A stretch of DNA of 64,000 bases from Naegleria gruberi. Taxonomy: Eukaryota. Where the stretch lies: assembly GCA_000004985.1 (NCBI GenBank), contig GG738862.1. One strand, 5' to 3'. Under the pieces are notes generated by a model. The model saw only the letters and a program-made list of their open reading frames with translations. It was not told the DNA's origin and ran no database searches. Within the stretch, counting starts at the first letter, position 1. Every line of letters begins with the position of its first letter. The translations under genes were made by a program, and so were the position numbers. Below are positions 20,607 to 51,536 of this stretch, one piece after another.

Positions 20607-20678
20607 ATTTATTGTTGAAAAGTGAATCTGGTGTCATTCAAATTATTAATTGAAGAGTGAAAGATTAAGGAATTGAAT

Positions 20679-21959: not shown

Positions 21960-22175
21960 GCAGATGACGAACATTCAACAAACAATCCAAAACTGGGATA
22001 TTCATATCTAAAATTGATATCCATTATTTTTGTACTGGACTCTATATCCCTCCTTTATTAATTTGAACATCTGTATATCACTGTATATATCTTTGTATTA
22101 CAATAGCTTTTTTAGTCCACACAACAATGTTTTCTCGTTTTCTCTCTTGTCCTTAGAAAAGCAAAAAAAAACAAA
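21960..22175 (+). repeat. Upstream/promoter block duplicated at 50190-50390
   Basis: About 200 bp (aaactgggatattcatatctaaaattg...ggactctatatccctcc...aatttgaacatctgta...) are near-identical ahead of both Cys-rich/TLDc paralogs. Confidence 0.7.
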
Positions 22176-24035
22176 ATGTATCAAAGGAAAGCATTGATAA
22201 CTAACCAATCAATCCTTAGTGTCAGTTTGCTGCTAGTTTGTTTACTGGCATTAAGTATTTTGCATGTTCCATCATCTGTTTTGTGTGCTTCCTCAAGTAG
22301 CTCATCAAGTAATGGAACTGTGAGAGAATGGCTCAATGACTTGAATGATCAAGCTGCTAATCTACAATCCTCTGCTTCAAGATTGCAAAAAGCTATTGCA
22401 ATTTTGAGTATGGCCAACAATACAGCATCCATCATCAGCATGAGAAATGCCCAGCTAAAGAAGATTAATTCTGCACTTGACATGATTAATCAAGAAATTT
22501 CAATCTTTAAAATCACCTGCAGTAATAATGATGGTCCTGATTGTAGCATTCCAGTATGTGTATCAAAGTGTTTGAACTGCTCTGGACCTGGAAAGTGTGG
22601 TGTTTGTTCTGGTAATTTTGATGGAAGTGATTGCTCTGCATGTAAATCTGGATGGAGTAATTACAATAGCAATTGTACTGTTCCAATTTGTGATTCTAAA
22701 TGTATTATTTGTCAATCACCTGGAAACTGTACCAATTGCTCTGGTAATTATGATGGTTCTGTATGTTCATCATGCAAATCAGGATGGAATGGTTCTAATT
22801 GTTCAACACCTATTTGTGATTCTAAATGTGTAACTTGTCTCTCACCAGGAAACTGTACTAATTGCTCTGGTAATTGGACTGGATCTGCCTGTTCTATTCC
22901 TGTATGTGATTCCAAATGTTTGAATTGTTCAGCACCTAGTGTTTGTTCTCAATGTTCTGGTAATTGGGTTGGTTTAACTTGTTCAGTATGTCAGACAGGA
23001 TGGACAGGAGCAACTTGTTCAACACCAGTATGTGATTCCAAATGTACAACCTGTGCATCTCCTGGTGTTTGCTCAGTTTGTTCTGGTAATTGGCAAGGAT
23101 CTACATGTTCCACATGTAAGACAGGATGGACAGGAGCAACTTGTTCAACACCAATTTGTGATTCCAAATGTACAACCTGTGCATCTCCTGGTCAGTGTTC
23201 TGTGTGTTCTGCTGGTTGGACAGGAGCAACTTGTTCAACACCAGTTTGTGATTCTAAATGTACAACATGTGCATCTCCTGGTCAGTGTTCTGTGTGTTCT
23301 TCTGGTTGGACAGGAGCAACTTGTTCAACACCAGTTTGTGATTCCAAATGTACAACATGTACATCTCCTGGTGTTTGCTCAGTTTGTTCTGGTAACTGGG
23401 ATGGTCCTTCATGTTCTGTGTGTAAAACTAGTTGGACAGGTTCATCTTGCAATCTCGCTCTTGGTGATTTTGCAAACTCACCATTATTCTCCGCTAGTTA
23501 TGGAGCTAGGTTGATCACATCTATTTTGAGTGGCGTTATGAAGAAAACACCAACCAGACTCTATAGAGCCATGGCAACTTATGGTATGGGAATTGGTTAT
23601 GGCTATCATCCTTACGCTTTCCATAATGCCTGCAATGGTTATTCTTCAACAGTTACAATTGTGAAAACATCAGCAGGGGCTGTATTTGGTGCCTATCTAA
23701 GCATTCCATGGGAAGATTATAATGCTGGGGATACAACAACTCGTAAGACATTTTCAGATCCTAATGCATTTCTATTTAGTATGGTAACATCGAGCGGTGT
23801 GGAGAGATTTGTGAAATTGGGTTATTCTGGAGCTGTTGGACAAACTGTTACATACAATTTTATAACACATCCATTGTTTGGAGCGTCGGATATTTATTTG
23901 GGACAAGGGATGAGCTATCAGCCAGCACCTGATGCTTATTCGAAACCAGCAACTTTTCAACCTTTGGAACCTAACTGGAGTTATGGAACTACATATTCAT
24001 TCACTGTTTCTGATTATGAAGTGTATAGTATTTAA
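22176..24035 (+). CDS. Secreted Cys-rich (EGF/laminin-EGF-like repeat) protein with C-terminal TLDc domain
   Basis: Signal peptide (LLLVCLLALSILHV). At least 10 repeats of CxSKCxxCxSPGxCxxCSGNWxGxxCSxCKxGWxGxxCSTPxCD. The C-terminal region LYRAMATYG...AFHNACNG...VTIVKTSAGAVFGAYLSIPW...AFLFSM...SFTVSDYEVYSI fits the TLDc pattern. Confidence 0.75.
   Translation: MYQRKALITNQSILSVSLLLVCLLALSILHVPSSVLCASSSSSSSNGTVREWLNDLNDQAANLQSSASRLQKAIAILSMANNTASIISMRNAQLKKINSALDMINQEISIFKITCSNNDGPDCSIPVCVSKCLNCSGPGKCGVCSGNFDGSDCSACKSGWSNYNSNCTVPICDSKCIICQSPGNCTNCSGNYDGSVCSSCKSGWNGSNCSTPICDSKCVTCLSPGNCTNCSGNWTGSACSIPVCDSKCLNCSAPSVCSQCSGNWVGLTCSVCQTGWTGATCSTPVCDSKCTTCASPGVCSVCSGNWQGSTCSTCKTGWTGATCSTPICDSKCTTCASPGQCSVCSAGWTGATCSTPVCDSKCTTCASPGQCSVCSSGWTGATCSTPVCDSKCTTCTSPGVCSVCSGNWDGPSCSVCKTSWTGSSCNLALGDFANSPLFSASYGARLITSILSGVMKKTPTRLYRAMATYGMGIGYGYHPYAFHNACNGYSSTVTIVKTSAGAVFGAYLSIPWEDYNAGDTTTRKTFSDPNAFLFSMVTSSGVERFVKLGYSGAVGQTVTYNFITHPLFGASDIYLGQGMSYQPAPDAYSKPATFQPLEPNWSYGTTYSFTVSDYEVYSI
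23030..23400 (+). repeat. Near-identical in-frame 87-nt tandem repeats inside the Cys-rich gene
   Basis: gcaacttgttcaacaccagtttgtgattc(c/t)aaatgtacaac(a/c)tgtgcatctcctggtcagtgttctgtgtgttct repeats about four times, encoding ATCSTPVCDSKCTTCASPGQCSVCS(A/S)GWTG. Confidence 0.8.
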
Positions 24036-24214
24036 ATTCAAACAATAAAAGATTCTTCATGAGCCATTAAAATAATGTGATGAAATTCCAACTTGGAAAT
24101 CTTGCTGATTTTCAACTGCATTTATTTATTTTTGATGTGTTTCAAACGAAACGACATCACTTCTACCAAGTTTATTATTTATAAAACAATAATGATGTAA
24201 ACTAACAAATCAAT

Positions 24215-24946
24215 TTATTGAGACAAACATTGATTAATGGATGGACATTGAGATGGAAGAATAAAATTAGCATTATCCACCTTTTCAATCATGTCATAAA
24301 AAACTTGTTCTTGAGAAGCATTCGAAACTACAACATACGAGCTCAATAACCAACACTTATTGGAGGTCATTTGTGGTTCTCTGAATGTCCACATGGTTCC
24401 AGTGGATCCGTTTTGAGAAGAAACAACTTTCAATGCATCATAATTACCAATCTTTCCTTTTGTAATCTTTCCATTGGATGCTGGAATGCAAATTGAATTC
24501 CATTGATTGAAATCTGAAACCTTTCTACAAACACATTGACCATCTCTTAAACCATACAAAACAGTTACTGTAGAACTAATCTTGATATCCCAATTGGTGT
24601 AATTGAAAACAACTCCATCAACTGTATAACTGATATCTTGTCTCATCTTTCCAGTATTGTAATCTGCTGAAACTTTAAAGTTTCCATCGTAATGTTGTAA
24701 AGTGTTATTGGACAAGACAGCAATTTGATTGAAACTTCCTTTCAAAGAAAAGACATTTGGCAAACAACAAATATTTGAATCAGATGGAGCTCTCTTATTG
24801 AAAGCAGAACTTTCGAATAATTGATTGAAAACAAACATTGGAGAAGCAGCGTGGCACATTGAAGCCATGGTTGCAACAACAAGTAAGAATGAAAGAATTG
24901 TTAGTTTCAACATTTTTTTTGGTATGAGAAATTGTAAGATATTCAA
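24215..24946 (-). CDS. Secreted hypothetical protein (243 aa)
   Basis: N-terminal signal peptide (LTILSFLLVVATMASMCHA), several Cys and N-glycosylation sequons. No recognisable domain. Confidence 0.5.
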   Translation of the reverse strand: MNILQFLIPKKMLKLTILSFLLVVATMASMCHAASPMFVFNQLFESSAFNKRAPSDSNICCLPNVFSLKGSFNQIAVLSNNTLQHYDGNFKVSADYNTGKMRQDISYTVDGVVFNYTNWDIKISSTVTVLYGLRDGQCVCRKVSDFNQWNSICIPASNGKITKGKIGNYDALKVVSSQNGSTGTMWTFREPQMTSNKCWLLSSYVVVSNASQEQVFYDMIEKVDNANFILPSQCPSINQCLSQ

Positions 24947-25038
24947 ATTATTTTACTAATTTATACATTTTCAAATTGGAAACTCAATCGAAACAATTTA
25001 ATTGATCAATCTTGAAACTTTAGTTGAAAGAATAAAAA

Positions 25039-25156
25039 GACTACAGCACCACAGGTTCCCAAGTTGTCTCCAACCTCAGTACTGATGTGGCTCGACGATG
25101 CTTAACTTCTCAAATCGGACGGGATGAGGTGCATTCATCGTGATATGGCCGTAGCC
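25039..25156 (-). rRNA. 5S ribosomal RNA gene (copy 3, minus strand)
   Basis: Exact reverse complement of the 5S sequence. The upstream box is present but carries a ~20-nt insertion (tgatgaaagattattataaa) between box and gene. A T-run terminator follows on the minus strand. Confidence 0.85.
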
Positions 25157-26085
25157 ATTCTTTATAATAATCTTTCATCATTCAATTCCTTAATCTTTTA
25201 CTCTTCAATTAATAATTTTACTAAAATTGCAAAAGGAAAAAGAGTACGTGACAAATTGTTGCCAAAAGGTTTGTTGTTCTTTCTGGATAGGATTTGAAAT
25301 TGAAAGAACAAGAAGAACATCACTGCTAGATAACATCACGGAGATGTATTTATTGGTGTCTTGATGAAGATTGATGAAGTAGATGATGAATAATTATTGT
25401 TGGGAAGACATGTGAAAATTCAACTTTCCAATCTTTGGAAAATTGCTGAAAAACATTGCAAATCTACCTTTCCTGTTGTGATTTAATAACAAATCTTGTT
25501 CGTCCTGTTGAAATTGAACAAGTTTTCCAGTGCTGTTTTTGGCTGTGAAAATTAACGGTCAAACTTTCATCTTCTCCAACTCTACATCTGCTTGAAGGAA
25601 AATTTTGAAACTTTCTGGTATGATGCTAATTAACATTTAGAACAAGCCTAGGATGTTCTTGTTGCTTTTGATGATGTTCTTCATGATGAAAATATTAAAA
25701 TTATTAATTTGATGAAAATATTCTTAAAGTAATACAATCGCACCCATTTGATTGTTATATCATTGCTGTATACTAATGGATGATGTGGGTTTTACTTCTC
25801 CAACTCGACAAAATGTTCCATCAATTTAATCGGTGCCTTTTAAAATTTGTAATTCATGTTGAAATACAACAAAATTAATTCCCACATGTTCCATATTATC
25901 CTATCCTCTTGTTCTGAAAATATTTTCCGCAGTGTCGAAGAATTGCCTTTGAAAATCAGCAATGATGAAAACTGTAGCAGAGTGATGAAATTTTTTCCTC
26001 TTTTTTTTTGCTTGCACTTTCTTTCATCAAACTTCATTTAATGCAAAAACTCGGCAAAGATTTTCATTTACATATGTAACGGTTT

Positions 26086-27129
26086 TTGAAGAATAAAAAA
26101 AAGATTTTAATAATTTTCGAAAAAATGAGTAGGATCGGGAAAGTGTGGTCATTGTTCGATCATTTTTGCGATTTATTAGCATCTCATCACGCAATACTAA
26201 ATGAGGAACCATTTGTAAATTTCCCTACTACTTCACTATCGGTCAGCCAAAAGCTTTTTGAAGATTTTAAACAATACACCACCCACCATAGAGATTATAA
26301 AGGGTTTCCTACAAGAAAAGGACATAAAAAGAACAAGTCTCTTCTTCCGAAGAACACAACAATGCCAAAGAATCACGAAGGTATTGTTAAAATGTTCAAT
26401 AATTTCTTCAATGCAAAGAAATCTTACATTCAAGAAAAACTCGAGGAAGATAAAAAGAACGGCCCTACCATTGCAGGTGTTGTTGAAGTTGTTGAGTGTG
26501 ATAAAGATGACAATGAGCAAGAATTATCAGATGACGAGGTTGTTGTGGATCCCAATGACGAAGATGTTGAAAAGAAATCATATTCTGTCTCGAACGAATC
26601 AGTAACAAGTATAATTAAGAAAGATATGAATGAATTAAAATCCAAACAGAGGAAAATATCTGACATTCAAGACTATGAAATTGAAGAAAAGCCCTTAAAG
26701 ATTAAAAAGAAAGAACTTGTTAAACAACAAGACCAGCAGGCCAATCTATGCAGAGGTGCTATTATAACATTAAAGAAAGAGGCAAAGCAAGCTATTGATA
26801 TTGATACAGAATCTCAAGATAAGAATATGACACAAACAAAGCTGTGTGTTCAAAAGATAGAACAAGTGTTAGAAGAAACTGTACCTATAATTGAAAAAGA
26901 AGCAAAAGAACTTCAACAAAGAAAAGAAAAAGTATTGGCTGAATTACAAAAAGAAGAAGAACGTATCAAATTAAGCATGGGACTTGTAACTACTGCTTCT
27001 CAATTCAAAGAACATTTGGTTGGTTTTATTCATGAGAAGGAAATAGAGTTTGCTAAATTGGAACAACAAGAGGAGGAGAACTTGAACGATTTTTATGCAA
27101 ATCTGTTCAAAAACTCAAACAATAAATGA
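26086..27129 (+). CDS. Hypothetical Lys/Glu-rich coiled-coil protein
   Basis: 347-aa ORF. The C-terminal half, EKEAKELQQRKEKVLAELQKEEERIKLS, is predicted coiled coil. Confidence 0.45.
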   Translation: MKNKKKILIIFEKMSRIGKVWSLFDHFCDLLASHHAILNEEPFVNFPTTSLSVSQKLFEDFKQYTTHHRDYKGFPTRKGHKKNKSLLPKNTTMPKNHEGIVKMFNNFFNAKKSYIQEKLEEDKKNGPTIAGVVEVVECDKDDNEQELSDDEVVVDPNDEDVEKKSYSVSNESVTSIIKKDMNELKSKQRKISDIQDYEIEEKPLKIKKKELVKQQDQQANLCRGAIITLKKEAKQAIDIDTESQDKNMTQTKLCVQKIEQVLEETVPIIEKEAKELQQRKEKVLAELQKEEERIKLSMGLVTTASQFKEHLVGFIHEKEIEFAKLEQQEEENLNDFYANLFKNSNNK

Positions 27130-27187
27130 AAGCGAGTAATGGCCTAAAATTGGTGTAAATTTCCAAAAACGTTTGGCTAATGGACTT

Positions 27188-30100
27188 TTATTTAAAAACA
27201 ATTTTCTGATTGTTAATTAAAACATTGTAAAGATGAGAAAGTTCAAAGAGACACGACTTGTCACGAATGTTAATAATTGTCCTCAAATATTTCACTGCAT
27301 CCCTATTAAATATTCTACACTTGTACAAGAGTGGAAGTCCTTCAAGAGATTCTCTTGAAATAAGTCCAAATTCATCAATAATTGATTGTTGGAATAATTC
27401 CTCTTCCTTAGAGTTTGGTGCATAGGGTTTTGGAGCTATTCCCAAGAATTTACAGAACTCATCTTGTTCTAATTGATTGGCAAAATAGAGAGATCCAGCA
27501 AATATGTGAATGTCAGTCAACAAGTTCAGTAATACCTTGTCAGCAATTTCAAAGTTATTATTTGGTACACTCCATGCTGGTTCATCAATCATGATACGAG
27601 AGGTAGGACTTGTTCGTGAGCAGAACATGAGTATACGAGTTGGTGAAAATTTGTCCAACTTTTGAATATAATGATTAGCCTCTTCTGGACTCAAAATGAT
27701 AATTGTTTGTGAGTATTCACTGTAGGCCAGCCAAGTGACGGGTTTGAAGAATGGACTATTCTTGGAAGCATTCGAAACAGTTTTGAGGTAATTGTCAGTG
27801 GCATAAATGTTGTGATTCCAATTGATTGGAGAGGCCAATAGAGTTTCTTCCAAAGATTCAGATAATGGACGGGCTTTAAGTGGTTGAATGGAGACATCAT
27901 ATTCCTCTTGGAGAATGCCCTTCTTCATGAATAACTCCAAGGTATCGTCAATTACAGTAGCTGCAGGATCACATTTTTGAGGTCTCTCTACAATTCTTTG
28001 CTCTTCCAATTCATTTTCCAATTCTCTTTCCTGTTCCTCGTTGAGTATTTGTGAAAAGATAGTTTTAGAGTGAGCTCTCTTATTAATATTTGCTCTAATT
28101 AATTCCAAAGAAGGAGAAATATCTATGGAAAAGAGTTTTGAAATGTGAAGGGCTCTCTTTTCAAAGATACTGAGAAGGTATTGTTCATATCTTTCCTGTC
28201 CATAAAAATCACTAATTTTGAATAATTCATTTTCAGTGCACTGCTCTGCATATTCATCCATTTTAAGCTTGGCATCATATTCGGTTTTGGCAATTTTTTT
28301 AGAGTAGAAGAGCAATCCACTAGTTGACCATTGTAGATAGTGATCATTTTCCATTTGTACTCTATTGTGAATGGACCATTTCAATATTCTTTCTTGGATT
28401 GTAAGCTGTTGTGAAAAATTGTCATTAATAAAACGATCAACTTCTTGACTTGCCCAGAAGGCAACAGAGTGTCCTTTTCCTAATAATCTCATTCTCATAC
28501 AGGCTTGGCATAGTCTCTCAAATGTAAGACCATTACCCAGTGTTACGGCTGCTTTCATTCCAGTAGGGAATTTGAGATCTGTACCTCTTGTGTGAATATC
28601 ATCAAGATAAATCAAACATCTTTCCAATTTGTTCTTATAGGGAGATATTTCGAATGGAATTATCAAACCATTTCTATCCAAAACAACCAATTGATCTTGG
28701 GTGTTGAAAAATACAGCTGCATCTGCAACTTGTTCAGTCACAGAGTTTAACCAGTATTTGCAAAGATTCATATTACTCATTTCAAGCATGAGCGCTCCCA
28801 CATCAATTAATACTCGTTGGTTATTAGCATTCAATTCAGATATAAAGTTAGTAATCTCTGCTTGTTTGACAACATGATATTCTTCATTCTCTTTAGAGAG
28901 GAGAATTTTCAATAATTCTCCAGTAGTTCCCCTAAGGGAAGGAAGCTCATTTTCCTTAATGGTGATTGGCAAAAGGAATGCCTTCGTTCCAGAGAATCCA
29001 CAAGTAGGGAATTTACTTTCCTTACAAAGATTCCAAGCTGATGCTGAAATCTTTCTATCAAACTGTTTACATTCTCTTGAGAATACAGCTCGATTGAGGA
29101 AAAAGTCAATCACTGCCATGTTATTTCTTAAAGCTGGGTATAAAACTTGTGTCTTTTGAATAAAGTCTTCCAAGTTAATGCTCTTGTAATGTTTGATTGA
29201 TTCGGGAATATTTTTCATTTCATAGACCCATTTCTCATATTCCACATCGGGAGATTCTATTCTTTGAAGGAATTGGAAAACCACATCTAATTGTTCATTA
29301 GTCAATCCAGAATAATAATAACTCAATAATGTTAAAAGAATTGCAATATCTGGATGCCCAAACTCGGCTCTATCAGAAGGGCAATCCTTAGCTCTGTAAG
29401 GAACAGCCACCAATCTCTTGATATTAGGATTGACTCCATAATTAACTCTCCATCTCTTATTGAGCGAGTGATACAATAATCCAAAAGCAAATATACCTCT
29501 CATTAATAAAATTTCCGATTTTAAAATATCATTTGACATGGTAGAAAGAATATCCAACTCAGTTTGTGAAATGGTTTCTGCTGTTAATATCTTCTTAATA
29601 TTTTCTCGGTCGTTCAATTTGTAAGGAATGAAAATTTCACTTGCCCTTCCTTCTAAAATATCATCTACAATTAAATCAACTAATTGATTGTAAGATGTCT
29701 TATCTAAAACTCTAAAATAAGGGAAAGTATGAGAATCTCCTCTAGTAAAGAATTCAACATGTGAAGCGCCAAGTTTGTTGAATAAACTTTCAGCATGCTT
29801 TCTAACAATTCTCATAATTTTTTGAGGTAATATCCATCTCAGATTTCCCATATCCAAATCTTTTTGTTCTCCCACAGTATAAATTAATTGATATCTAACA
29901 TGAAGAATTTCATCACTTTCATCGAGAATATCTCTGCAGTGTTTTTCGAAATAGTCTTGTAATCTCAAATAATCGTGAGCAATTGATTCCTTAGCAATTG
30001 CTTTTTCAATTCCTTTCAATTCAAATGACAATCTATATTCTGGAACAGTGATAAGAATGCTCCTTTCCTTTTCCATTACTTCCAATACACTTCTAATAGT

Positions 30101-33100
30101 CTTTAAATCTGTTGCAGTAATTTTCAAATCTCTGCTAAATGGTAGATAGATTACCTTTCTATTAAGAATTCCACCAAGTTTAAATGAAAGATATGTATAA
30201 TTGGTCTGGAGTAATTGTTTTAGTACAGTCAATCGAGGAATTTGTGCTTCGTTAAATGCAAGGACTAACATTGGAATAATTACCGATGTTTTGCCTTCTC
30301 CCATATTGAATTGGAGAACCATGTTTGTACTTGAGGAAAGCATGTGATTTGCAACTTCATATTGTCTTGGTCTAATCATCAAATCGAGTTCAATTTCCAA
30401 TAATAACCATTGGGGGAACTTTTTAGGGCTCCAATTAACATGTCCACTATTTTCAAGTTCTCTATCAAATTGTACCTTCTTATTTGGATCATTGTTCATA
30501 AGTTTCAATCTGTTGTATCGTTGTTCCAAAGTTGTTAATACAGCAAGAGCTCCAATCAAGTCTTTACAACCACAATACTGTTCAGTATCTGATATCAAAT
30601 CCTGGAATAACAGATATGGGCATAAACGATTTGAAATTCCACATTCTGCTATTGCTGATTTTGCAGTATCGGAAAAATTAGAAAGTTTACATTCCAGAGC
30701 TTTCCAAATTTTTTCTTTCAATTCCAATATGACAGAAATATTAGGCAGTTGTGCTGAGGTTACTTGGTTTGGGTTATTGGCTGTCAAATAACTGCCCTCC
30801 AGGTCTAGAATGTACTCGTTGTAAAGAGGGTCATGAGAGTCATGTGAAAATAATTGAACATCATGCTCCAAGGTTTTGATTACATCCTTCTCACAATATG
30901 GTGATATGTCACCTTTTTCAAAAATGTATTTAGCCATTTCTGGAACATCAGCTAATCCAAAAACAAGCTTATTTCCATCTTCTTGTACCTTGGTAAAATT
31001 CTGAATATCAAATGTTTGATTTGTTTCGTTTGGCTGTAAATTCTCCATTGTAATGTTGACTATTGTTATGTCACCTTTAGCATTATTCATCATATTTTGG
31101 AGAACTGATTTAATACCTTGTAAAAATTTTTGAACTCGTTCTCTATTGTAAAGTGTAGATAAATAGTTATTGATATGATCGACAGCTTCACTCTTATCAA
31201 TAAAATTTAATCTTCCAAATTTGTTTTTCTCCATTAATTGCTCCTTATTGAATGCTATTTCAGCAAACCTTAGGCATGTTCTAATATCATTATTAAACGT
31301 TTCATGGTCATCCTCATCATCAAATGTTAGTCTACTATTTGCCGCTTTCAATAAATTTATAACGTCATCTTCATCAAAATCAGTACATTCCAAATCATCA
31401 ACACTTGAAAAAATTAAAGGTGAATGTTGATTTCTAAAAGAATTGGCAAATAAATTAATAATCATGAAACAAGCCAACATTTTCTTTTTTTCTGGGAATA
31501 CATAACCGAGATAAGATATGAAAACTTTGAAATCGGCAGGTGTTTGAGTTTTGGCTGCTTCATAGAGTGTGAGGAAATCATCTTCGAGGTCAATATTTTT
31601 CCAATCATACAGGAAGTTCTCCACTTTTTTTTCTGGATTGAACGAGGACACTGAATTGATAAGTTCAACTGCTGAAATTTTCTGAAAATTATTTTTTGAA
31701 ATAGATGCCAAGTACTTGCAAGCAACATAGGATGTCATTGAAGAGATCTTGATTGTTTCAACATAATTGACATCTTTTTGAGAACTAATTCTTAAACGTA
31801 CAATAGGATTGTAATAATTAAGGTAGGCTTTGTAATACCTTCTTGCCAAGAAGAGAGGATCTTCCTCGTCACTCTTTTTAACACTACTGCCACTTTCCCC
31901 GTCTAGGAAAATTGTCTCCTCTGACTTTTTAACAATAGAGTCCACAATTAGTTTGTAAGCATCCAAAAGACATAAACTTGATAAATTTGTTTTAGGCCAT
32001 GTTATCTTCTCATTGACTTTCATTTTTGGTGGATGGAAGCTTCTGTCAGGAGAAATAGATGAAATGGCCTCTAGTAGAGAGGTTTCCAATTTTGAGAGAG
32101 GTCTCATTGGCCAACATCTTGCAGATTTCAAAATTTTGAGAGCTGATTCATAACCTGTTAATTTTGTGAATGGATCGACTATTACAGAGCTGGTGATACC
32201 ATGAAGAAGTGCCAAAAAAAGCCAGGACGATAAGCTATCATTAGCTTCTAATTGCCACATGTACTCATTAACAGAATAGGTGAAATAAGGAGTATCTATT
32301 GATTTAGTCATATCGATACGTGTTAAATGGTGATGTTTGAATTTTTCTGTTGAAATTTCACCATTTGGTACAAGCACAATCTTTTTAGAAGAGTTTGGAT
32401 TTTCGTCCTTCAGCATTATGGCATTAGAAAGTCCAATTAATGTACCACAATAAAATGAATCGCAAACTATCATTGAAAACTCCTTTGATCGTAAATAGCT
32501 GTTGTTCACCAATTCAAAGTGAAGTCCCAAACGTGGAAGTTCCACTAACACTTCATCATTATTTGCAAATATATGAATATTATGTTTGAGTTCAATTCTT
32601 GAAATTGATTTCAATACTTCTGTATACGTTTCTCCAAAATAATTCATGAGTACTCTTTCAGTACCAACTTCTTTCAATTTCTTTTCTGTGACATCGAGTT
32701 TGTAAGCAATGCTACTTTTAAATTTTGGAGAAAAGAAAGAAATAGGTCTGAAAAGCACACAATTAGTTGTAACATCATACCAATGACTGTAGTTTTCCAC
32801 AAATTGAGCTGGAAGATCATATTCAAAAATTTTGTGAGACAATAAAATAGATGTTTCAGAGCCATGCTTCAGAATGAATTGCATACTTTTTCTAAACTCC
32901 AGTTGACAGCCGTCAATATCGTACGATGTCACAAAAGCATCTGGACGTGTGGCTTGTTGCACATCAAACACAAAATTACCAAACACTCTCTTATACTTTG
33001 CATCTGCTGTGATAGGATCAGGAAGTCTTCCAATTGGATTTCCATTGACAAGGAATGTTCCTCTAACAATATTGAAGGCAATTGCTGTAAATCCCGAATC

Positions 33101-40300: not shown

Positions 40301-40308
40301 CTTCTCAT
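37307..40308 (-). CDS. KCTD9-like protein: BTB/T1 tetramerisation domain plus pentapeptide repeats. Two exons; the intron is 39890-39945.
   Basis: ITLNVGGKKMKATLQTLTD...YFIDCDPALFKYILHWLRYGNI is a T1-type BTB. Many A(N/D)LxG/CNLxx pentapeptide repeats follow. Exon 1 (40308-39946, 121 codons) joins exon 2 through GTATGT...TTAAG, keeping frame. N-terminal Ser/Pro-rich region and poly-His. Confidence 0.65.
39890..39945 (-). other. Spliceosomal intron (56 nt) in the KCTD9-like gene
   Basis: Minus strand: gtatgtaaaatttacattcaccaactttcgaataataattatttttcatcattaag. Confidence 0.6.
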
Positions 40309-40492
40309 TTTTTTTTGTATGGTTTTTGGGTGATTTTGTAAGGTTTCGAATTTTCTTGTCGAGATTCGAATAAAAATGTGAAAGGTGAATTTGGGTCGAT
40401 ATTTGTCGAATTACCAAAAAGAATAGTTTTACCAAATGATATCTTTACCATTGTATTAAAAGAGTAAAATACAATAATTAAAAAAAACAATA

Positions 40493-41242: not shown

Positions 41243-41283
41243 AACCAAAATTTATCTTTTTAATTCCACAAAATGTGTGAAAT

Positions 41284-42963
41284 TTAAATTGAATTCATAA
41301 AATATTCATCATCGTCATGCTCAATTGTAGTTCCCATCGATTCTAGATAAGTTTTGGCATCACCTTTTATCCAGCCAAACCAAGTTGGAAATTTAGAGCA
41401 CCAAAATAATGCCTTCTCATAATCAACAGGAATTCCACATTCACCCCTCATGTATAATTGTCCCAATGATATTAAGACTTCTTTTCTCGATAAAAAGGAA
41501 CACGATTTGGAAAGTTGTACGAGCTCTGCAAATCCACGCTGTTTATCTTGTGCAAGAAATCCTTGAATTCCTGTAATGTGTTTCCTTGCTATCCATGGTG
41601 AATACCAGTCAATATCGTCTCGTTTCTGTAAGAATGTGTAGATTTGGAAAATTGTGGAAATAGGTAATTGAGAATTACAAGCCCAACAAAGTGAATGAAT
41701 TGTCGATTGTTTCATGTTTCCAACAAAATATTGGAAAAATTCATTACAAATCGTACTTCCTTTCTTTGATAGAATTGTGGCATTGAAAAATAGTTCACAA
41801 GATATTCCATGCCCGATTTGACTGGGAGAGGTTGCTATACGAGAAAGACGCAAATTATCAAAAGTGGACAAAGCAGAGTCGTTACAATAATTGGATTCTT
41901 CATAGTTGTTATCGTACAGAGGAAGAAACAAGGAAAAACATGTCATTGACGAAAGTACATTGGAAATTTCGTTGTGTATCAGTTCTCTCTCTGATTCATC
42001 AAATAGGTTTTCCTTATTTTGATTGATAATGCTTAATTCACCAAGAAAGCGCATGATATTCGAATAGACATCTTTGGAATTAAAACAATCACTTAAATTT
42101 GTTAAGGCAAGATTAGAAATCAGACTAATATCCTCTCTTCCAATTAATTTTACCAGAAATCTATTACACAAATCCATAGCACTCTGGTTTCCGTTATAAG
42201 CAAGACGACACAAGGCCAAAAAACCACATTCTTTCGTTTTTTCAAATAAGGTGACTCTCTTTAGTCCCAAATTCATTTCACTCAATTTTGTTTCAAGTTC
42301 AGTAGTAAACTTTTGGCTTATCTGACAAATCTTTTCAGAATTTCCCTCCTTTAAATATTCTAATAGTGATGAAATACAATTTTCTAAACTAGGTAAATTA
42401 TCATAACTCTGTTTCACATCTATCAAGCTCAGTTTCTTTGCAAACTCAACATCTCCATTCAACAATGAAGAAACATACCAAGCCAAACTTGTGGGCATAT
42501 ACCTTCTAAAATCACCAACAAACATGCAGAGTTCTGGATATTGGTCGATTATGAATATAATCTTTTTCAATAATTCACACATTTCTAATAGTGGTTCAGT
42601 GATATTGTCGTCTTTGTTGCTGTCCACTAAAAAACGACACAAAACAATGGACGGATCATCCCAACACAATTCATAAATTGTTGCTTCACTACCAATTTCA
42701 AACCTCACTCTCCAACTGACATCATTTTCTTGATATTCAACATGAAACGGAGCAATCTTTCTCCATAAAAAACCATTAATAAACAATCGTCCGATTACAT
42801 CTTGACTTGTTAAATTATGAAATGAAGAAGTACTTGAAGAACTCAAGGGAAATAAGGCAAATTCGACAAGGTATTTAAACGAAGAGGTTTTCCTCTTGAT
42901 GAAATACAGCAATCCGCCTCTTTCTTCTGCCTTTATCCCTTTGAAATAAAAGAACGTGGACAT
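41284..42963 (-). CDS. Sel1-like repeat (TPR-like) protein
   Basis: C-terminal FAELVQLSKSCSFLSRKEVLISLGQLYMRGECGIPVDYEKALFWCSK fits the Sel1 consensus (A...LG.xY..G.GV..D...A..W). 559 aa. Confidence 0.5.
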   Translation of the reverse strand: MSTFFYFKGIKAEERGGLLYFIKRKTSSFKYLVEFALFPLSSSSTSSFHNLTSQDVIGRLFINGFLWRKIAPFHVEYQENDVSWRVRFEIGSEATIYELCWDDPSIVLCRFLVDSNKDDNITEPLLEMCELLKKIIFIIDQYPELCMFVGDFRRYMPTSLAWYVSSLLNGDVEFAKKLSLIDVKQSYDNLPSLENCISSLLEYLKEGNSEKICQISQKFTTELETKLSEMNLGLKRVTLFEKTKECGFLALCRLAYNGNQSAMDLCNRFLVKLIGREDISLISNLALTNLSDCFNSKDVYSNIMRFLGELSIINQNKENLFDESERELIHNEISNVLSSMTCFSLFLPLYDNNYEESNYCNDSALSTFDNLRLSRIATSPSQIGHGISCELFFNATILSKKGSTICNEFFQYFVGNMKQSTIHSLCWACNSQLPISTIFQIYTFLQKRDDIDWYSPWIARKHITGIQGFLAQDKQRGFAELVQLSKSCSFLSRKEVLISLGQLYMRGECGIPVDYEKALFWCSKFPTWFGWIKGDAKTYLESMGTTIEHDDDEYFMNSI

Positions 42964-43174
42964 TTTTTTATATTAAGGATGTGATGAACTAACTCTCTGT
43001 TGGTTTTTCAACGATCGTGTGTGTAGTTTCCACCTTAATATTAATAATGTTAATAATATAAGTGTTAATTAAAAAATTAATGTCACACCTTAAATATCTA
43101 CGCAACACTAAGCATTCGTATACTAATTGAAATATTTTACAAATTATTTGGGTTTAATTTCCAAACTGGAAACA

Positions 43175-45350
43175 TTAAATGTTATTAGTTTTTTTCAAAT
43201 TTTGAACGGATAACCATTTAGAATAGGTTGAGGTTTGTTGTAAACGATTGAAAGTATCCTGGAGGTTCAACAGCAAATCAGTTTCAACACATCTCCAAAC
43301 TAAATCAAATTCAATCTGAGATTCAGCTTCACACTTTTCTAAAAGTGAATAAAACTTCCTCCTGCAAGTGAAAGGAAGGTTCACTTCATATTTTGAATAG
43401 TTTCTAATAAATTCAGCTTCAATTTCTTGTAATTCTTTGAACTTGACAAACTTTCTACCCTGTAGCGATTTCAACTTGATGTAAAATTCATAATTCTCTG
43501 AACTAAACTCCTTTTCACAGTATTCCTTTAAAAGTACAAGTAAATCTGCATTTTTCAATTCTTGATCCCAATCCAGTTTTGACATTTCCTTTCGTTTTGT
43601 TATCATTTTGTAAATTTCAATCAATAAAACATTTCCTCCACTAATTTGGACGAAACTCAAACAAAGTAAAGTGTTGAAAATTCCTGTAAATATTGATAAA
43701 TTTTGAATAGTTTCCACATTTGACGAGCTCACTACTGAATTTTCAATTCCAGTTAGAATTCCAATGAAAAGTGGTATAAAAGTCGAAATTAAATCAACTC
43801 TAAAATAGAAAGGATCGTCGAAAAAGAAGAACTTTCGAATACCTCCTCCCTTTAGCATGTTTTTTCTTTGCAAGAACAAATCTAATAGCAAACAAAGTCC
43901 ACAAAAAATCCACAAAATAAGAATAGCAGCTAATAAAATAATAGGTCTATAAACATCGGCTGCTATCTTGCTTTCATTCACAAAATAGTAAACGCTTGTC
44001 AAGTTCAGTAAATGTGAAATTGGGAAGGTAAGAACTACGGTCACTAGCAATCCTGCCTTTTGAGAAGCGAGCATTTTCAATAACTTTTCTCTCTTTGGAA
44101 ACATTACAATGAGAGAGTATAAATTTCGCAAATAATAGAACCGAACAATGGTGGTTCCATAAATGGTAACCCACCAAAAAAAGCAAAATAAAGAAACGCT
44201 ATACCAAAATCCAACACAAGTTCTGGATAGTCCAGTGAATGTAAGCATGATACCCAATATTAGAAGTGATGTGTATGGAATTCCAATTCTTCTTTTGATT
44301 GATGGTTTTTTGTAAACTTTCAAACCGAATAACAATAAAAAATAAATTACTATAATTAGGAATTGAGGAATGATAAAGTAATCCAAAATTGGTACGAAAT
44401 CCTCGCCATAACACCCATCAGTTTGGCACATATAGCACGTAGAAGGAAGTAAATTTTGCCAAGTTTCATTCAAGGAAAGATCACCAGACATGTTCAAATT
44501 AATCTTATCATTAACGAGAGTCCAATTTCCATTAATTTGTGTCTTTCCAGTAATGTTACTAATGATATCAATATCTAGTTGAGAAAAATTAGCATAACCA
44601 GTCATCCTTCTAAAAAATTGAGCATCCGAAATGTCAGGTCTGTTATCACAATTTGTAACTTCAAAATCAAACATGTTAGCAACTAACTGTATTGGTAGTA
44701 GATTGTGTGTAGACTTCATACGGGATGAGAGGTATCGCAACAAAGTCGGCAGTGTTCATGTAGATGCCAGATGCCATGTCAACATCGCGATAAAATCTCA
44801 GATAAAACGAAAAGTAATAGGGATCCAACAAGATGGCATCATATTTTGCAAAGTAATTTCTTCTCTGACACATGTCCACCTGTGGATAAATAGGAAAGTA
44901 GCTGGAAGAATCTAAACTATTTGATGACCCGACAGAAAGTGACAGATTTACACAGGTGAAAAATCTTGCCAAGTAATCATAAAAATCTGGAATAGGGCCG
45001 ATGGTTAAACCCTTCTCCTTGACCGATTCTATCAAATACTTTCGTCTAGAATCGTTATTATTTGTGGTGATTAGTTTAGTCAAAGTTTCATTAGAAAATT
45101 TACTTTTCCACACGAATAGTATTAGAAATGTTCTTACTCCAACCACAGAATCTCCGGTTTTAACTTGTGTAAGAAGTGGAGAAGTTGTAGTAACCAAGTC
45201 TAAAGCATTCTTTCTTTCACAAGTTGTGTGTGAAATGAGAAAAAACCAAGTGAATGTCAATAGAAGGAGAAAAGCTGATTTTTTCATGGTTGTCAAACGC
45301 AAATTTCGAAATTTCATGCACTCTAGTTCTACTTGTTTCCAAAATAACAT
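43175..45350 (-). CDS. 7TM receptor fused to a C-terminal RGS domain (plant AtRGS1-like architecture), with a signal peptide and extracellular N-terminal domain. The two ORFs (44676-45350 and 43175-44743) are in different frames, so a frameshift or tiny intron is needed near 44690-44740.
   Basis: RGS box LKEYCEKEFSSENYEFYIKLKSLQG...AEFIRNYSKYEVNLPFTCRRKFYSLLEKCE. About seven hydrophobic helices precede it. The upstream ORF opens with a signal peptide (KSAFLLLLTFTWFFLISHT). The ORFs overlap by 68 nt. Confidence 0.6.
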
Positions 45351-46160
45351 TTACTTACTGGTTTTGGGGCACAACTGGGCACTTTAGGCAAGTTTCACAT
45401 TTACCTTAGCTTAGGAACTCGTCATGTATGATTTTGAAAACATAATATGAAACCAACACATCATCATCTTAAGATCATCATTGGTCTATCTAAAATGTAT
45501 AGGAACTTGGTAAATTGACAACATGATGAAAATCTGATAATAAATATGATTTTAATCTGATAATAAATAGTAGTTACTAAAGACATGATTCAAGTTGGTG
45601 AAGTACATGTTGAGTTATGGTCCAAATACTTTTTCAAAATTAGAATGTACCTATCCCTATAATAACTTGACCAAAATTGATTAGAGAAAGTTCTTCTACT
45701 ATTGACCATTCCGAACAATACTACATTAACATGATTTTTCCAACTTGTCCAGTAGATATTTAAAATTAAATTACTAAAAATTAATTTCCACAAATACAAA
45801 TGGCATTATATTGATGATGGAACACAATAATGATGATGGTTGGTGAATGATCGAATGATGGAACACCAACTTGTGATTTTCCATCATGAAAAATAAATTC
45901 CAATTTCATGATGATAATCCACCAATAAAAATTACTATTATTATTACTATTTAGATCATGTTGAGATGATGTTGTGAAGGTTTGGTAGCTTCAAGATGTG
46001 AAACCACTCCGAAAATCATTAAAGTACATCACATACTCGATGTTGAAATATTTTTTATTGTTTTTTGTTATTTACATATTACATATTTATTTTTATTGTT
46101 TTTTTGTTTTATTTAAATCTGAGAAAAGATGAAGAACAGTTTATTCCAATAATCATTCAC

Positions 46161-47306
46161 TTATTGAAGAGAAAAAACTTCATAATCTTCAATTTGGAAA
46201 TATTGTGATCCTGTCAAGTATGATTGTGCGGTTGAACCTGGTGTCAATATTCCATCACCATAGCTGTGACCTAGATTAGCATAATTGTAATTATCTGCAA
46301 TATGTAAATCATGTCCTGCTCCAAATGCTGGTCCATATTGAGGATTGTGATAAATTGAGTATTGAGAAGAGTTGTCTCCAATCTTGAAGTAATATCCATA
46401 TTGTTGAGTCAATTTTGTAAATCTTTCAACTTTGTCAGCTGAAACTAAACTAAATAGAAATGCTGATTTGTCTGGAAAGAATGCTCCAGTAGTTGAGGTC
46501 CATGAAATACTTGTATAACCTCCAAATACAGCACCTGTTTTTGCCTTGACAATTACAACGGTTGAACCTTTGTTATCACATTTCGAATGGAATGCTTGAG
46601 CTGAGAAACCATCTCTTGATGCCTTAAATATTAATTTGAGTCCATTTGGTGTTGGAATGCCATTCAATATTTCTGTTGCTAATCTTTCTGATTGTTTTTG
46701 AGATAATAGTGTTGAATCTTTCAATCCACTTATTTTGGATTCGAGTTCTTTCTTTACTTGTTCTTCCTTATTCTTCTTTTCTTGTTCTTCTTTCAATTTC
46801 TTTTGATATTTGAGTTTCTTCTCTTGTTCTTCTTTCATCTTTGTTTCCAGTTCCTGCGAGGATTCAGATTTGAGCTGTTTGTTATCTTTGAGTTTATTCT
46901 TTTGGTTTTCTTTAGATTTAGATTCATGTCTTTCATGTAATGGTCTTGTTTGATATAATAGTTCAAGATTTTCAATTTCAATTTCCAAAATAGATTTCAA
47001 TTCATTCAATTCATTTCTTGTTGTTGATTTATCAGATGTGTAAGATTTAAACAAAGATGATTTCTTTCCACTCACTTCAAATGCATCCAATAAAATGTTA
47101 ATTTCCTTCAATGCATTTGATGTGTCTTTCAAATATTGCTTTTTATCTTTCAATACTTTGAACACATCTCTTGTTGAATATGTTGATGATGAAGAATTGT
47201 TGCTTGTTCCTTTACTAAGTAATGTTACTGTTGATGATTGTGCATGTGTAGCCATTACTAATGCACTCATCAATATTATTAAGGCAAATAAACAACAACG
47301 CAACAC
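46161..47306 (-). CDS. Secreted coiled-coil protein with C-terminal TLDc domain
   Basis: Signal peptide, K/E-rich coiled coil, then LKLIFKASRDGFSAQAFHSKCDNKGSTVVIVKAKTGAVFGGYTSISW...AFLFSL...YFQIEDYEVFSL, a canonical TLDc. Confidence 0.75.
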   Translation of the reverse strand: MLRCCLFALIILMSALVMATHAQSSTVTLLSKGTSNNSSSSTYSTRDVFKVLKDKKQYLKDTSNALKEINILLDAFEVSGKKSSLFKSYTSDKSTTRNELNELKSILEIEIENLELLYQTRPLHERHESKSKENQKNKLKDNKQLKSESSQELETKMKEEQEKKLKYQKKLKEEQEKKNKEEQVKKELESKISGLKDSTLLSQKQSERLATEILNGIPTPNGLKLIFKASRDGFSAQAFHSKCDNKGSTVVIVKAKTGAVFGGYTSISWTSTTGAFFPDKSAFLFSLVSADKVERFTKLTQQYGYYFKIGDNSSQYSIYHNPQYGPAFGAGHDLHIADNYNYANLGHSYGDGILTPGSTAQSYLTGSQYFQIEDYEVFSLQ

Positions 47307-47751
47307 AATTGTGACGATTGTTGGTACAGATATTACTGTTAATCTGTTTCATTCAACAGATCCACAACTATTAAATGTTGGTTATCTTTTTGTGGGCCTG
47401 AAAATAGAAGTACAACACAATATGGTAATTGAATGTGATTACAACTATTACAATTGGACAATTAAAGAAATATTGAAAGTTCAATAATAATTATCACAGT
47501 TACTCCATTAAAAGGACAATTAACTTGACTCTCATCCAATTTTTAACCATACCAGTGATATTTAAATAATCTTAAATAACCCATTCTGGGCCCAAAATGA
47601 TATTTACTTTTAAAGAAACTTTACTTTGTAAATTTGGAAGTTTGACAAAAAAGATATGTAATTTGTTTGGAGAAACACTTGCTTTGGGTTATTCAAAAAA
47701 CACTATAAAACACCACCTATTCACACCTTACTTGAAACAATCGAAAAAGAA

Positions 47752-48501
47752 ATGGAAAAATCATCAAATAACTCCAATTTGGTTTTCATTACAGGTGTAA
47801 CTGGTCATTTGGGAAGTGTTCTTTGTAAGAAACTGTGTGAATGTGGCTACAAGTGTAAAGGTTTGGTTAGAGATGAAGATTCCAAAACCTTGGCCATGAA
47901 GGAGATGGGTTGTTCTGATGTAATTGTTGGTGATTTGGTAGATTGCAATCCAAGTGACATGGTTGACTGGTTGAAAGATTGTGATTTTGTCATTGATGCT
48001 GCAGGAGCTTCAATGCAATCAGAAATTGAACAGGTTGAATTCATTGCAGGAAAGAAACTATTCGATGCTGCTGTCAAATCCAATGTGAAAAAGTATATTT
48101 GCATGTCTGCGCTAGGTTGCGATATCATTGCCTCTGGACAAACTGGAAAGGAACAACAATTGGTTTGTAAAACATGTAGTGAGAATCCAAAGTATGCTAA
48201 ATCTCAATACAAGTTGGATAAGTACATTCAAGATCAAGCTCCAAGAAATTTGGACTATCTCATTGTCAGATGTGGAGATTTAACTCAAGAGAGTGGATGT
48301 AATAAGATTATGGTGGCTCCCAATTTGAGTAAGAAGTATCATGAAAAGAATTGTTGCGTGTCCAGGCAAGATTTGGCAAACTTTATCGTGGCTGCCATGA
48401 AGAGCAATAACTTGACAAGAACTACTCTCGAGGTGATTAATAGTGAAAGAGATGGAGTAGCACCAGAGGAAGCTCTTAAACAAATTAATGTTGCCATCTA
48501 A
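47752..48501 (+). CDS. NAD(P)-binding Rossmann-fold protein (atypical SDR, NmrA/NAD(P)H-binding family)
   Basis: N-terminal VFITGVTGHLGSVLCKKL matches the TGxxGxxG dinucleotide-binding motif. 249 aa. Its 3' end lies 4 nt from the convergent RCC1-repeat gene. Confidence 0.65.
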   Translation: MEKSSNNSNLVFITGVTGHLGSVLCKKLCECGYKCKGLVRDEDSKTLAMKEMGCSDVIVGDLVDCNPSDMVDWLKDCDFVIDAAGASMQSEIEQVEFIAGKKLFDAAVKSNVKKYICMSALGCDIIASGQTGKEQQLVCKTCSENPKYAKSQYKLDKYIQDQAPRNLDYLIVRCGDLTQESGCNKIMVAPNLSKKYHEKNCCVSRQDLANFIVAAMKSNNLTRTTLEVINSERDGVAPEEALKQINVAI

Positions 48502-50006
48502 TCATGAATAATCAACACATCGTGGAAAGGAACTGTCTCTGAAGAGTGAGTCAATTCGTGAGTTGCATACCTTTTCATTTTCAATAAATTATTGATCAGT
48601 AAAGTGTTATTTCTAATAACATCCATCATGACTGCAATCAAACTGCTTCCACAAGCCACATCAATCACTGTATGGCTATCAATGTAATTAGCAAGCTCAA
48701 CGTTTTCAGCATACTGCACCTTTAATTTTTCCATAATATTGTAAGGAGTATTAGGAGCATTCGTTGCTGAACCACATGACATTAATTCCCTGGTTCTAGG
48801 ATTGAACGAAACAATACTTGTGAAACCTCCAAACATTCTCAAATCATGAGCATAATCCACATGCTTTGAAAATTGATATGATTTCACAGTCTCGAATCCA
48901 CCTATATTATCATGCCCCACGTATCCATTAATCATAAATAAATTATTGGTTGTGTAACAAGTGAGATGGCTCAATCTTAATGCATTAATATTTACAACTC
49001 CAGGAATACTTGGTAATTTCTCTAATACATTGGATGATGTGACTGAAAGAGTTTGTCCATAATTATTCATTCCCATCACATAAATATCTCCATTCACTGT
49101 TTGAACAATCATGTGTCCATAACCTGCTGTAATATTTCTAATAATTGGATAACCAGTTCCAACTGTAAATGGAGTAAAATCAGTCAATTGTTGTTCCACT
49201 CTTCCTGCAATGTAAATGTATCGATTATCCAAAACTACAATGGTGCTATACGTTCCACAAACTGCATGTGTAATTCGTTGTCCATCCATAATAATGTGTT
49301 TTGTGGCAACCAAACTGAATGGTTCCACTCCAGAAGTAGTTGGTTTCTCCAATTTACCATATTGACTATTTTCAGAAAGGACATCTTTAGAATCATCATT
49401 TGGTGTAATGAATACAATTTGAAATCAAATGTACTTACGAACATAAATCTTGTTACTCTCCTTAATGGCAATCACATGATAATAGCCAGCCAATAAAAAC
49501 TAATGATCATCATATTATGTTAAAATACACACAAAATGATATGAAACTTACCTTTACTTTTGTCTTATCATTGGCAAAATCCTCAGATGTTGGTACAATT
49601 ATTGTTTCTATTGTATTATTCTCTGCAGCATCACTTCTCAAAATGAGTCCTTTCGCTGTGTGCCCATATTTAATAAATAAATAAATTAAAATCATGATCA
49701 ATAATATATTTAAATATAATATTAGAGATGATCACAAAACATACCTGTAGAACAAAAGAATTGTGATCCGGGTGCAGTGATCATATGAATCTGATCATTT
49801 CCGACCTCTTTGGGCATTTTGATCTTCAAATAAAGTTGATCTTTGAATGCAATAAAGACCTTCCTCTCTACACATGGCAAATCACTCAAATTAGAAGGAT
49901 CAAAAGATGAATTTTGTTGTTGATGTCTCTTTTCTGCTATATTACTGTGATTATTATTGCTGCTGATCATTTTTCTGTTTTTTCTAGAGCTTGTTTTGTT
50001 GCCCAT
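48498..50006 (-). CDS. RCC1-repeat (beta-propeller) protein. Four exons: 50006-49745, 49655-49552, 49499-49439 and 49384-48498. N-terminal MGNKTSS looks like a myristoylation signal.
   Basis: Three introns (49656-49744, 49500-49551, 49385-49438) with donors GTATGT, GTAAGT, GTAAGT and AG acceptors. The exon sum is 1314 nt (438 codons) and stays in frame. RCC1-like blades GYGHMIVQTVNGDIYVMGMNNYGQ. Confidence 0.65.
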
Positions 50007-50315
50007 TTATTTTTAGGTTGTGTTTGATGAACTTTTGTTCATGATCACCGATCAAGTGTAAGCATGTCCATCTAATGAGCCAAGCAAGGAGTGAATAAGT
50101 TTTTTAAAACATGCTCATTGTTAAAGAAGCAATGAATACATTGAGATGATTACCACCATTCAATGAACACTCATTTAACACTAAATAATGAATGTTCAAT
50201 AACAAACAATCTAAAACTGGGATATTCATATCTAAAATTGTTCCCATTATTATTGTACTGGACTCTATATCCCTCCTTAATTAATTTGAACATCTGTAAA
50301 TCACTGTAAATATCT

Positions 50316-51536
50316 ATGTATTACAATAACTGTTTTAGTCATCCACACAATAATCCCTTGGAAAAGCAAACAAAAAAAATGTATCAATATAAAGCATTGC
50401 TTAGTGTCACTTTGCTGATAGTTTGTTTACTGGCATTAAGTATTTTGCATGTTCCATCATCTGTTTTGTGTGCTTCCTCAAGTAGCTCATCAAGTAATGG
50501 AACTGTGAGAGAATGGCTGAGTGACTTGAATGATCAAGCTGCTAACTTACAATCCTCTGCTTCTAGATTGCAAAAAGCTATTGCAATTTTGAGTATGGCC
50601 AACAATACAGCATCCATCATCAGCATGAGGAGTGCTCAACTCAAGAAGATTAATTATGCTCTTGACATGATTAATCAAGAAATTTCAATCTTTAAAACCA
50701 CATGCAGTAATAATGATGGTCCTGATTGTACCATTCCTATATGTGTATCAAAGTGTTTGAATTGTACTGCACCTGGCATATGCTCACAATGTTATGGCAA
50801 TTGGAATGGTACTGACTGTTCCTATTGTAAGATGGGATGGAAAGGCATTGATTGTAACACTTCTCAATGTGATTCAAAGTGTTTGATATGCACTGGACCC
50901 TCTCAATGTTCAGTTTGTTCTGGTAACTGGGATGGTGCTAACTGTACTACTTGTAAGGCAGGATGGGCAGGAACTAATTGTGCTACCCAAGTTCCTGTGG
51001 GAGATTTATCATCTTCTTCCATATTGACACCAGTTAATGCCACAAGATTTGTTTCTGAAATAGTTAATAGTGTAAGATCCAAACCAATTACACTATTGTA
51101 TAGATCTTCAAGAGATAGTTATAATCCTTCAATCTTCCATAGTTTATGTGATAATAAGGGGCCAACTATTACAATTGTTAAGGCTAATACGGGAGCCATA
51201 TTTGGAGGTTATACTTCAATTAGTTGGAATTCAGGTGGTGTCAATTTTATAGTGACCCAAATGCTTTCTTATTTAGTATTATTTCTTCAACAGGAGAGCA
51301 AAGATTTACAAAGATACTCCAACAACCACCATACGCCTATAGTATTTATACATCTTACCACCATTTCCCTGTATTTGGTGCCGGGAATGATCTTTATATT
51401 GGCACAAGTTATTGCAGCACTACCCCTTCCTCATACATATATCAATCCAGAGCTTATTTCGCTTGTCTCCCAAATGTTAATTGTGATACTTGGGTTCTTT
51501 CAGATTTCGAGGTTTACTCGTTGTAAGCAAATTTAA
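50316..51536 (+). pseudogene. Paralog of the 22176 Cys-rich/TLDc gene, disrupted by a 1-nt deletion in a T homopolymer (~51243). The TLDc C-terminal part continues in frame +2 (51224-51526).
   Basis: N-terminal 120 aa are near-identical to the 22176 gene. The frame breaks between ISWNSGGVNF and (Y)SDPNAFLFSI...SDFEVYSL; restoring one T in caattttatag gives GGVNFYSDPNAF. This could be a sequencing error rather than a true pseudogene. Confidence 0.6.

Follow-up and report, generated by a model that had tools for sequence, protein, structure and literature searches.

The TLDc proteins studied so far, OXR1 (Oxr1p), NCOA7, TBC1D24 (Skywalker) and mEAK7 (TLDC1), have no signal peptides and act at the cytosolic face, and to our knowledge the domain is known experimentally only from cytosolic proteins, through action on the V-ATPase or protection from oxidative stress. 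The TLDc relatives with solved structures are cytosolic as well, several of them bound to the cytosolic V1 part of the V-ATPase according to the titles of their entries. Dozens of coral proteins (Acropora, Montipora, Stylophora and Porites) combine EGF_CA repeats with TLDc and are automatically annotated as 'fibropellin-like' or 'crumbs-like', and other fusions join TLDc to collagen and Ig domains (Pocillopora), FN3, a papain-like protease or, in a bacterial protein, collagen. Our literature search on secreted or EGF-linked TLDc, Naegleria TLDc, coral TLDc and other extracellular-type TLDc fusions returned nothing relevant. Here we analyzed a 64,000-nucleotide stretch of nuclear DNA from Naegleria gruberi NEG-M (contig GG738862.1; G+C content about 33%), referred to below as the window, which contains three TLDc genes, termed copy A, copy B and gene C. 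We consider it likely that A and B are old paralogs of a modular gene family specific to N. gruberi, with heads that are predicted to be exported, and that their 5′ parts were exchanged recently.

A sequence-only reading of the window had interpreted A and B as products of a segmental duplication that copied the gene along with its promoter. The stretch that proved to be recently common to the two copies is only about 600 base pairs (bp) long: blastn found a single segment of high identity, 21977-22591 in A against 50201-50776 in B, comprising the promoter, the signal segment, a helical N-terminal module (N-module) and the first half of an EGF-like unit. The near-identical upstream block and N-terminus noticed in that reading are present. 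The non-coding upstream part is identical at 158 of 178 bases (89%, with three indels), and 110 of the first 144 aligned codons are the same, the remainder being divided between 17 synonymous and 17 non-synonymous differences, with one 6-codon indel in addition; about 10 of the 17 non-synonymous differences fall before codon 135. On the 5′ side, the adjoining 300 bp match at 115 of 283 positions, which is the random level, and no flank is common to A and B beyond 21977 and 50201. On the 3′ side, protein identity changes abruptly at about codon 135, from 89% in the N-module to 35% in the TLDc head. Synonymous positions change with it: at conserved residues the same codon is used in 102 of 115 cases (89%) within the shared block, in 6 of 15 in the rest of the first EGF unit and in 26 of 66 (39%) in TLDc. 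Elsewhere, blastn returned weak repeat-to-repeat matches (about 70%), and the TLDc-coding parts gave no alignment at all.

The segments of copy A also have different nearest relatives. Its N-module is closest to that of B (89-95%), and its TLDc head is closest to that of P0005 (93%, as against 35% to B). P0005, which is NAEGRDRAFT_76184, lies on a separate 59.9-kb scaffold; it is about 97% identical to A over 337 codons of the 3′ part, and its N-terminal part is quite unlike that of A. The head of B is nearest to those of gene C and P0004 (41-44%) and further from that of A, and the heads of A and B are no closer to each other than those of any other family pair. Judged by these alignments, copy A is a three-part mosaic, with a 5′ part as in B, a 3′ part as in P0005 and diverged repeats between them. 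The most economical reading appears to be repeated non-reciprocal exchange among old paralogs combined with unequal recombination of the repeats. Gene conversion or chimeric recombination would recently have passed the 5′ part between the diverged paralogs A and B, another exchange would join the 3′ half of A to P0005 on the other scaffold, and unequal recombination within the 90- and 126-bp EGF units would have altered the repeat number. Surface or secreted multigene families with segmental gene conversion likewise show sharp-edged tracts of near-identity between diverged paralogs, variable repeat numbers and occasional pseudogenes; the Naegleria family differs from them in its small size and in giving no sign of programmed switching or of control through expression sites.

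A simple recent duplication of the whole gene with its promoter, followed by ordinary divergence and by loss of repeats in B, would account for the shared upstream block and N-terminus and for the same overall domain order of A and B. This history is improbable in view of the abrupt shift at codon 135, the unalignable TLDc-coding parts, the missing common flank and the different nearest relatives of the two heads, and a whole-gene duplication whose 3′ part was later overwritten by conversion from a paralog would still be a mosaic history. It is more improbable still that the 5′ block owes its similarity to strong purifying selection on the promoter and N-module with no recent exchange. The N-module is conserved throughout the family (24 invariant columns in five members), but its protein identity in the other paralogs is just 36-68%, and selection on the promoter and N-terminus cannot explain the block because its synonymous and non-coding sites are as conserved as the protein.

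We assigned the C-terminal domains with the Pfam TLD profile (PF07534; curated cut-off 24.5 bits). Copy A scored 38 bits (2e-9), gene C 97.8 bits (8.7e-28), the first TLDc part of copy B 46.9 bits and B with its reading frame repaired 71.7 bits; the second part of B alone, at 15.6 bits, fell under the cut-off. The match of A begins only at profile position 44 because of a 21-bp in-frame insertion encoding ATYGMGI (about 23574-23594), absent in P0005, in the 'SRDGF' loop, the most conserved loop of the domain. In the AlphaFold2 (AF2) model of A, which has a mean predicted local distance difference test (pLDDT) score of 63, the C-terminal domain (430-619) is modelled at pLDDT 70-93, two helices (49-79 and 84-117) at 85-91, and a hydrophobic helix spans residues 2-29. 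When the model of A was compared with the PDB by Foldseek, the best 15 matches were all TLDc (E 1e-7 to 1e-4; template-modelling (TM) score up to 0.75), among them Skywalker/TBC1D24 (6r82), OXR2 (4acj), NCOA7 (7obp, TM 0.75), mEAK7 on the V-ATPase (7u4t) and Oxr1 on V1 (7fde), and they were followed by the EGF repeats of Jagged and Delta. The earlier identification of the C-terminal domains as TLDc is supported by the Pfam scores of A, C and repaired B and by the predicted fold of A. A, B and C share the TLD profile with the studied proteins, and the model of A superposes on the solved domains; the TLDc subtype of A and P0005 has lost the SRDG and CDNKG motifs. All three genes are outside the studied OXR1, NCOA7, TBC1D24 and mEAK7 groups.

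As the sequence-only reading had noted, A and B have a hydrophobic signal or anchor segment at the N-terminus and, after it, Cys-rich repeats of the EGF-like kind, and B has the shorter repeat region (2 units, compared with 8 units of 30-45 amino acids (aa) in A). Copy A has 63 Cys, 62 of them outside the TLDc head, and 14 N-glycosylation sequons, 13 of them upstream of the head; no second hydrophobic segment was found. In its two helices, 9 of 9 and 7 of 9 heptad a/d positions are hydrophobic, and the helix pair is probably an oligomerisation or stalk module. The A-type protein is predicted to be an exported or type II-anchored glycoprotein because it has a hydrophobic N-terminus, no other hydrophobic segment, sequons, and Cys outside the head. 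In contrast to the studied TLDc proteins, the Naegleria domain follows a signal or anchor segment and disulfide-rich, sequon-rich EGF-like repeats and would face outward or into a lumen, a predicted topology that argues against a cytosolic role for copy A as V-ATPase regulator. The architecture had been called unusual, which holds against the studied TLDc proteins only, since EGF plus TLDc is common in coral genomes and further extracellular-type fusions exist. The coral proteins are alike in carrying EGF-type repeats directly ahead of a C-terminal TLDc, and one of them whose sequence was read, P0007, has a hydrophobic N-terminus. They differ in having calcium-binding EGF_CA repeats rather than tenascin/teneurin-like 8-Cys units, lack the heptad N-module, and are only 34-40% identical to the Naegleria proteins in TLDc; the two fusions are probably independent.

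The mature N-module was searched as a profile against 1.84 billion representative proteins and gave only 14 matches, of which 11 or 12 look like family members. Most are from N. gruberi; the others come from environmental data in ENA, and one of these falls into a cluster with an N. gruberi protein. The module is confined to N. gruberi-type sequences. In the database searched no family member was detected in other heteroloboseans, and the TLDc proteins of Willaertia in the same database are BTB-TLDc proteins. BTB-TLDc is a cytosolic type. The family comprises about 13 genes, whose products share a hydrophobic N-terminus, EGF-like repeats, and a helical module with the motif C-x(3-5)-G-x-[DN]-C at its end. 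Their layout is a signal peptide or anchor, a heptad helix pair of about 70 aa, 2 to 8 tenascin/teneurin-like EGF repeats and a C-terminal globular head, which is of the TLDc, Fibrinogen_C or Laminin_G_3 type. The nearest neighbours of the N-module cross these types: that of the TLDc protein P0159 has one fibrinogen-type and one LamG-type neighbour, and that of P0005 is nearest to P0161. Because the N-module neighbours cut across the head types, the heads appear to have been shuffled more than once.

Tenascin has an N-terminal heptad region, EGF repeats, FN3 domains and a C-terminal fibrinogen globe (PMC2120995). The order of heptad helices, EGF-like repeats and globular head is common to tenascin, ficolin/angiopoietin and the Naegleria family, and P0010, P0161 and P0163 carry Fibrinogen_C. 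Membership of the tenascins does not follow from this, as there is no FN3, the EGF_TEN scores are under the cut-off and the head of A and B is TLDc; the likeness is an analogy, and beyond N. gruberi-type sequences no relative of the N-module could be detected. By that analogy the heads, TLDc included, may act as extracellular ligand-binding modules. We tentatively suggest, at rather less than even confidence, that TLDc was recruited as an extracellular ligand-binding head and shuffled with fibrinogen-related and LamG/ConA-like heads on a lineage-specific stalk.

Gene C, on the minus strand between the two copies, had been proposed as a third secreted TLDc gene. Its TLDc domain was confirmed; secretion was not borne out in this strain, where no in-frame ATG precedes the hydrophobic core. 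The public model (P0086, 364 aa) leaves out the hydrophobic segment, starting after it at MATHAQ. Window positions 45783-49010 have a counterpart with 97.7% identity in an ENA metagenome contig, L001, where the gene starts with AAAAAAATG and its 390-aa product with MCQQSSQLFVLRCCLFALIILMSALAMATHAQS.... Relative to L001, deletions of 10 bp and 4 bp remove the ATG in NEG-M (47270-47340, minus strand, against L001 1480-1560), and the two versions of the gene differ by 11 synonymous and 16 non-synonymous changes. The product is predicted to be secreted in the related strain and not demonstrably in NEG-M. The N-terminal region of gene C was rejected as a homologue of the family N-module (hhalign probability 0.07), and C was treated as a separate TLDc lineage.

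The start of copy B had been placed at 50316. The ATG homologous to that of A is at 50379, where the public model XP_002678372.1 likewise starts, and the ATG at 50316 is the product of a substitution within the conserved upstream block of B. A one-base deficit in a run of four T, which the sequence-only reading had placed at about 51243 and which we located at 51245-51248, moves the rest of the TLDc domain into another frame, as had been recognized. The two pieces match TLD profile positions 3-77 and 79-148; when one T is added they merge into a single match over positions 3-141 (E = 9.3e-20), and the repaired stretch reads SISWNSGGVNFYSDPNAFLFS, equal in length to the matching segment of P0004 and C. 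An intron as the cause of the frame change was rejected, as the homology is colinear with no residues to spare (repaired B, P0004 and C each have 21 residues from SISW to FLFS). Copy B would have lost one T from a T5 run within its head, and its product would consist of the N-module, 2 EGF units, 77 of 170 TLDc positions and then about 96 out-of-frame residues. Beyond the lesion no stop interrupts the true frame for 92 codons, and FGAGNDLYIG and DFEVYSL, two motifs of the family, are retained; there is no sign of relaxed constraint and no other disabling change in the gene. Because of this open frame and these motifs, the lesion is very recent or not real; if real, it makes copy B of the reference sequence a pseudogene or null allele of very recent origin.

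Copy B may instead be intact in the organism, with the missing T a base-calling or assembly error or confined to one haplotype. We regard this as possible but unlikely. It is favored by the affected feature, a single base in a homopolymer, and by the intact frame, motifs and absence of further lesions downstream. Miscalls in T4 or T5 runs are, however, uncommon in Sanger assemblies. The NEG-M genome was sequenced by the Sanger method (PMC9928731, Table 1), the public gene model rests on the same sequence, and gene C, a TLDc gene 3 kb away, is also disabled here by loss of its ATG, which makes decay of the family at this place plausible. Because of the Sanger origin of the assembly and the decayed neighboring gene C, we judge with fair confidence that at least one NEG-M haplotype truly carries the lesion. 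A functional frameshift in B, by programmed ribosomal frameshifting or a selected alternative C-terminus, is hardly credible: the shifted frame is stop-free for 96 codons and ends 10 nt past the true stop (51249-51536), where the equivalent frames of A and C hold 4-5 stops, but 5.3% of codon shuffles keep it open, which is not significant, the shifted tail shows no match to the family or to Pfam, and no slippery-site or structural evidence was seen, although none was sought.

Several observations weigh against our account of mosaic paralogs with exported heads and a broken copy B. The Cys repeats score 30-36 bits with Pfam EGF_TEN, under its curated cut-off of 65, and the EGF-like repeats are partly modelled at low confidence by AF2. 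Export is predicted from sequence features only, and the 19-residue hydrophobic core could stay uncleaved and serve as a type II anchor; that the heads bind ligands is suggested by analogy alone. The paralogs P0004, P0005, P0006 and P0010 were compared at the protein level only, a level at which gene conversion and chimeric duplication are inseparable. For copy B, an exact-protein look-up in ENA, JGI and Logan assemblies gave no independent copy, a homology search gave no orthologue above 49% identity besides the reference model, and the TLDc genes that a scan of JGI metagenomes gave were all distant, none above about 40% identity over long matches, so that the missing T could be an assembly error or a single haplotype of a heterozygous site.

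Table 1. Features of copies A and B and gene C, and head types of the family. Coordinates are window positions unless given in aa.
Feature	Coordinates	Strand	Evidence or remark
Copy A, intact 619-aa open reading frame (ORF)	22176-24035	+	ORF, Pfam, AF2, Foldseek, repeat parsing
Copy A, upstream block (promoter/5′ untranslated region)	21977-22175	+	158/178 identical to 50201-50378; sequence further 5′ unrelated
Copy A, coding part of the putatively exchanged 5′ block, to about codon 135	22176-22591	+	Blastn; 102/115 same codons
Copy A, predicted layout	Signal/anchor aa 1-37; heptad helices aa 49-117; 8 EGF-like Cys repeats aa ~115-428		
Copy A, 3′ part	aa 283-619; 23022-24032	+	About 97% protein identity to P0005 (pairwise alignment)
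Copy A, TLDc head	aa ~430-619; 23463-24032	+	Pfam and predicted fold
Gene C: TLDc head (46167-46721) preceded by a K/E-rich helical region and a hydrophobic N-terminal segment lacking an ATG	46161-47306	-	Pfam
Copy B, upstream block common to A	50201-50378	+	Blastn and pairwise alignment
Copy B: signal/anchor, helical N-module, 2 EGF-like units (~50703-50993), split TLDc	50379-51526	+	
Copy B, TLDc pieces	51009-51248 (frame 1); 51249-51526 (next frame)	+	
Copy B, T4 run, one base fewer than in all paralogs	51245-51248	+	Sequence
TLDc heads (about 6): A, B, P0004, P0006, P0159, P0005			Pfam TLD
Fibrinogen_C heads (about 4): P0010, P0161, P0163, and similar P0160/P0169			Pfam
Laminin_G_3 (LamG/ConA-like lectin) heads (3): P0162, P0165, P0166			Pfam

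The surroundings of copy A include a 243-aa ORF directly downstream (24215-24946, minus strand) with a hydrophobic N-terminus and no Pfam match. Dispersed 5S rRNA genes are present at 3200-3318 (+), 20679-20797 (+) and 25038-25156 (-), each scoring 105 bits with Rfam, and a partial copy lies at 5308-5377; the 5S copies carry about 30 nt of conserved flank. Two of them, 20648-20801 and 25034-25187 with their flanks, form a 154-nt inverted pair, 94% complementary, on either side of copy A and the downstream ORF. This pair could act as recombination substrates; no 5S copy adjoins copy B. A tRNA scan of the window found none. Downstream of copy B, two ORFs at 52080-52475 and 52426-53229 (+) look actin-like from reading of their translations and are split over two frames, probably by a short intron.

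Elsewhere in the window, a DYW-type pentatricopeptide-repeat gene (7245-10828, +; C-terminus ...CSCNDYW) is broken into several ORFs. It contains tandem repeats of about 305-317 bp at 7965-9738, including two 300-nt copies that are 100% identical (9122-9421 and 9439-9738). Introns, real frameshifts and assembly collapse are all possible causes of the break because the repeat unit lengths are not all multiples of three.

For annotation, exact public NEG-M matches were found for the ORF 47752-48501 (XP_002678371.1) and for the frame-1 ORF 50379-51536 of copy B (XP_002678372.1), both on a 502-kb scaffold. The latter model, of 385 aa, runs on in frame 1 through the shift to 51536. Among the public N. 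gruberi proteins searched, none corresponds to copy A, whose sole match on the 502-kb scaffold is B and which appears to be an unannotated gene; in the same set B is modelled with a frameshifted tail and C without its N-terminus. Duplication and frameshift as such are routine turnover of a gene family and matter mainly for annotation.

The position of the TLDc domain may have wider meaning. It sits where paralogs bear classical extracellular recognition domains, fibrinogen-related or LamG, which hints at an extracellular binding module. If true, TLDc would have a function unrelated to V-ATPase regulation, for example the recognition of prey, substrate or cyst-wall glycans, and the coral and other EGF-, collagen- and Ig-TLDc proteins may share a function in extracellular recognition. 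N. gruberi, a tractable free-living amoeba, would be suited to testing an extracellular TLDc.

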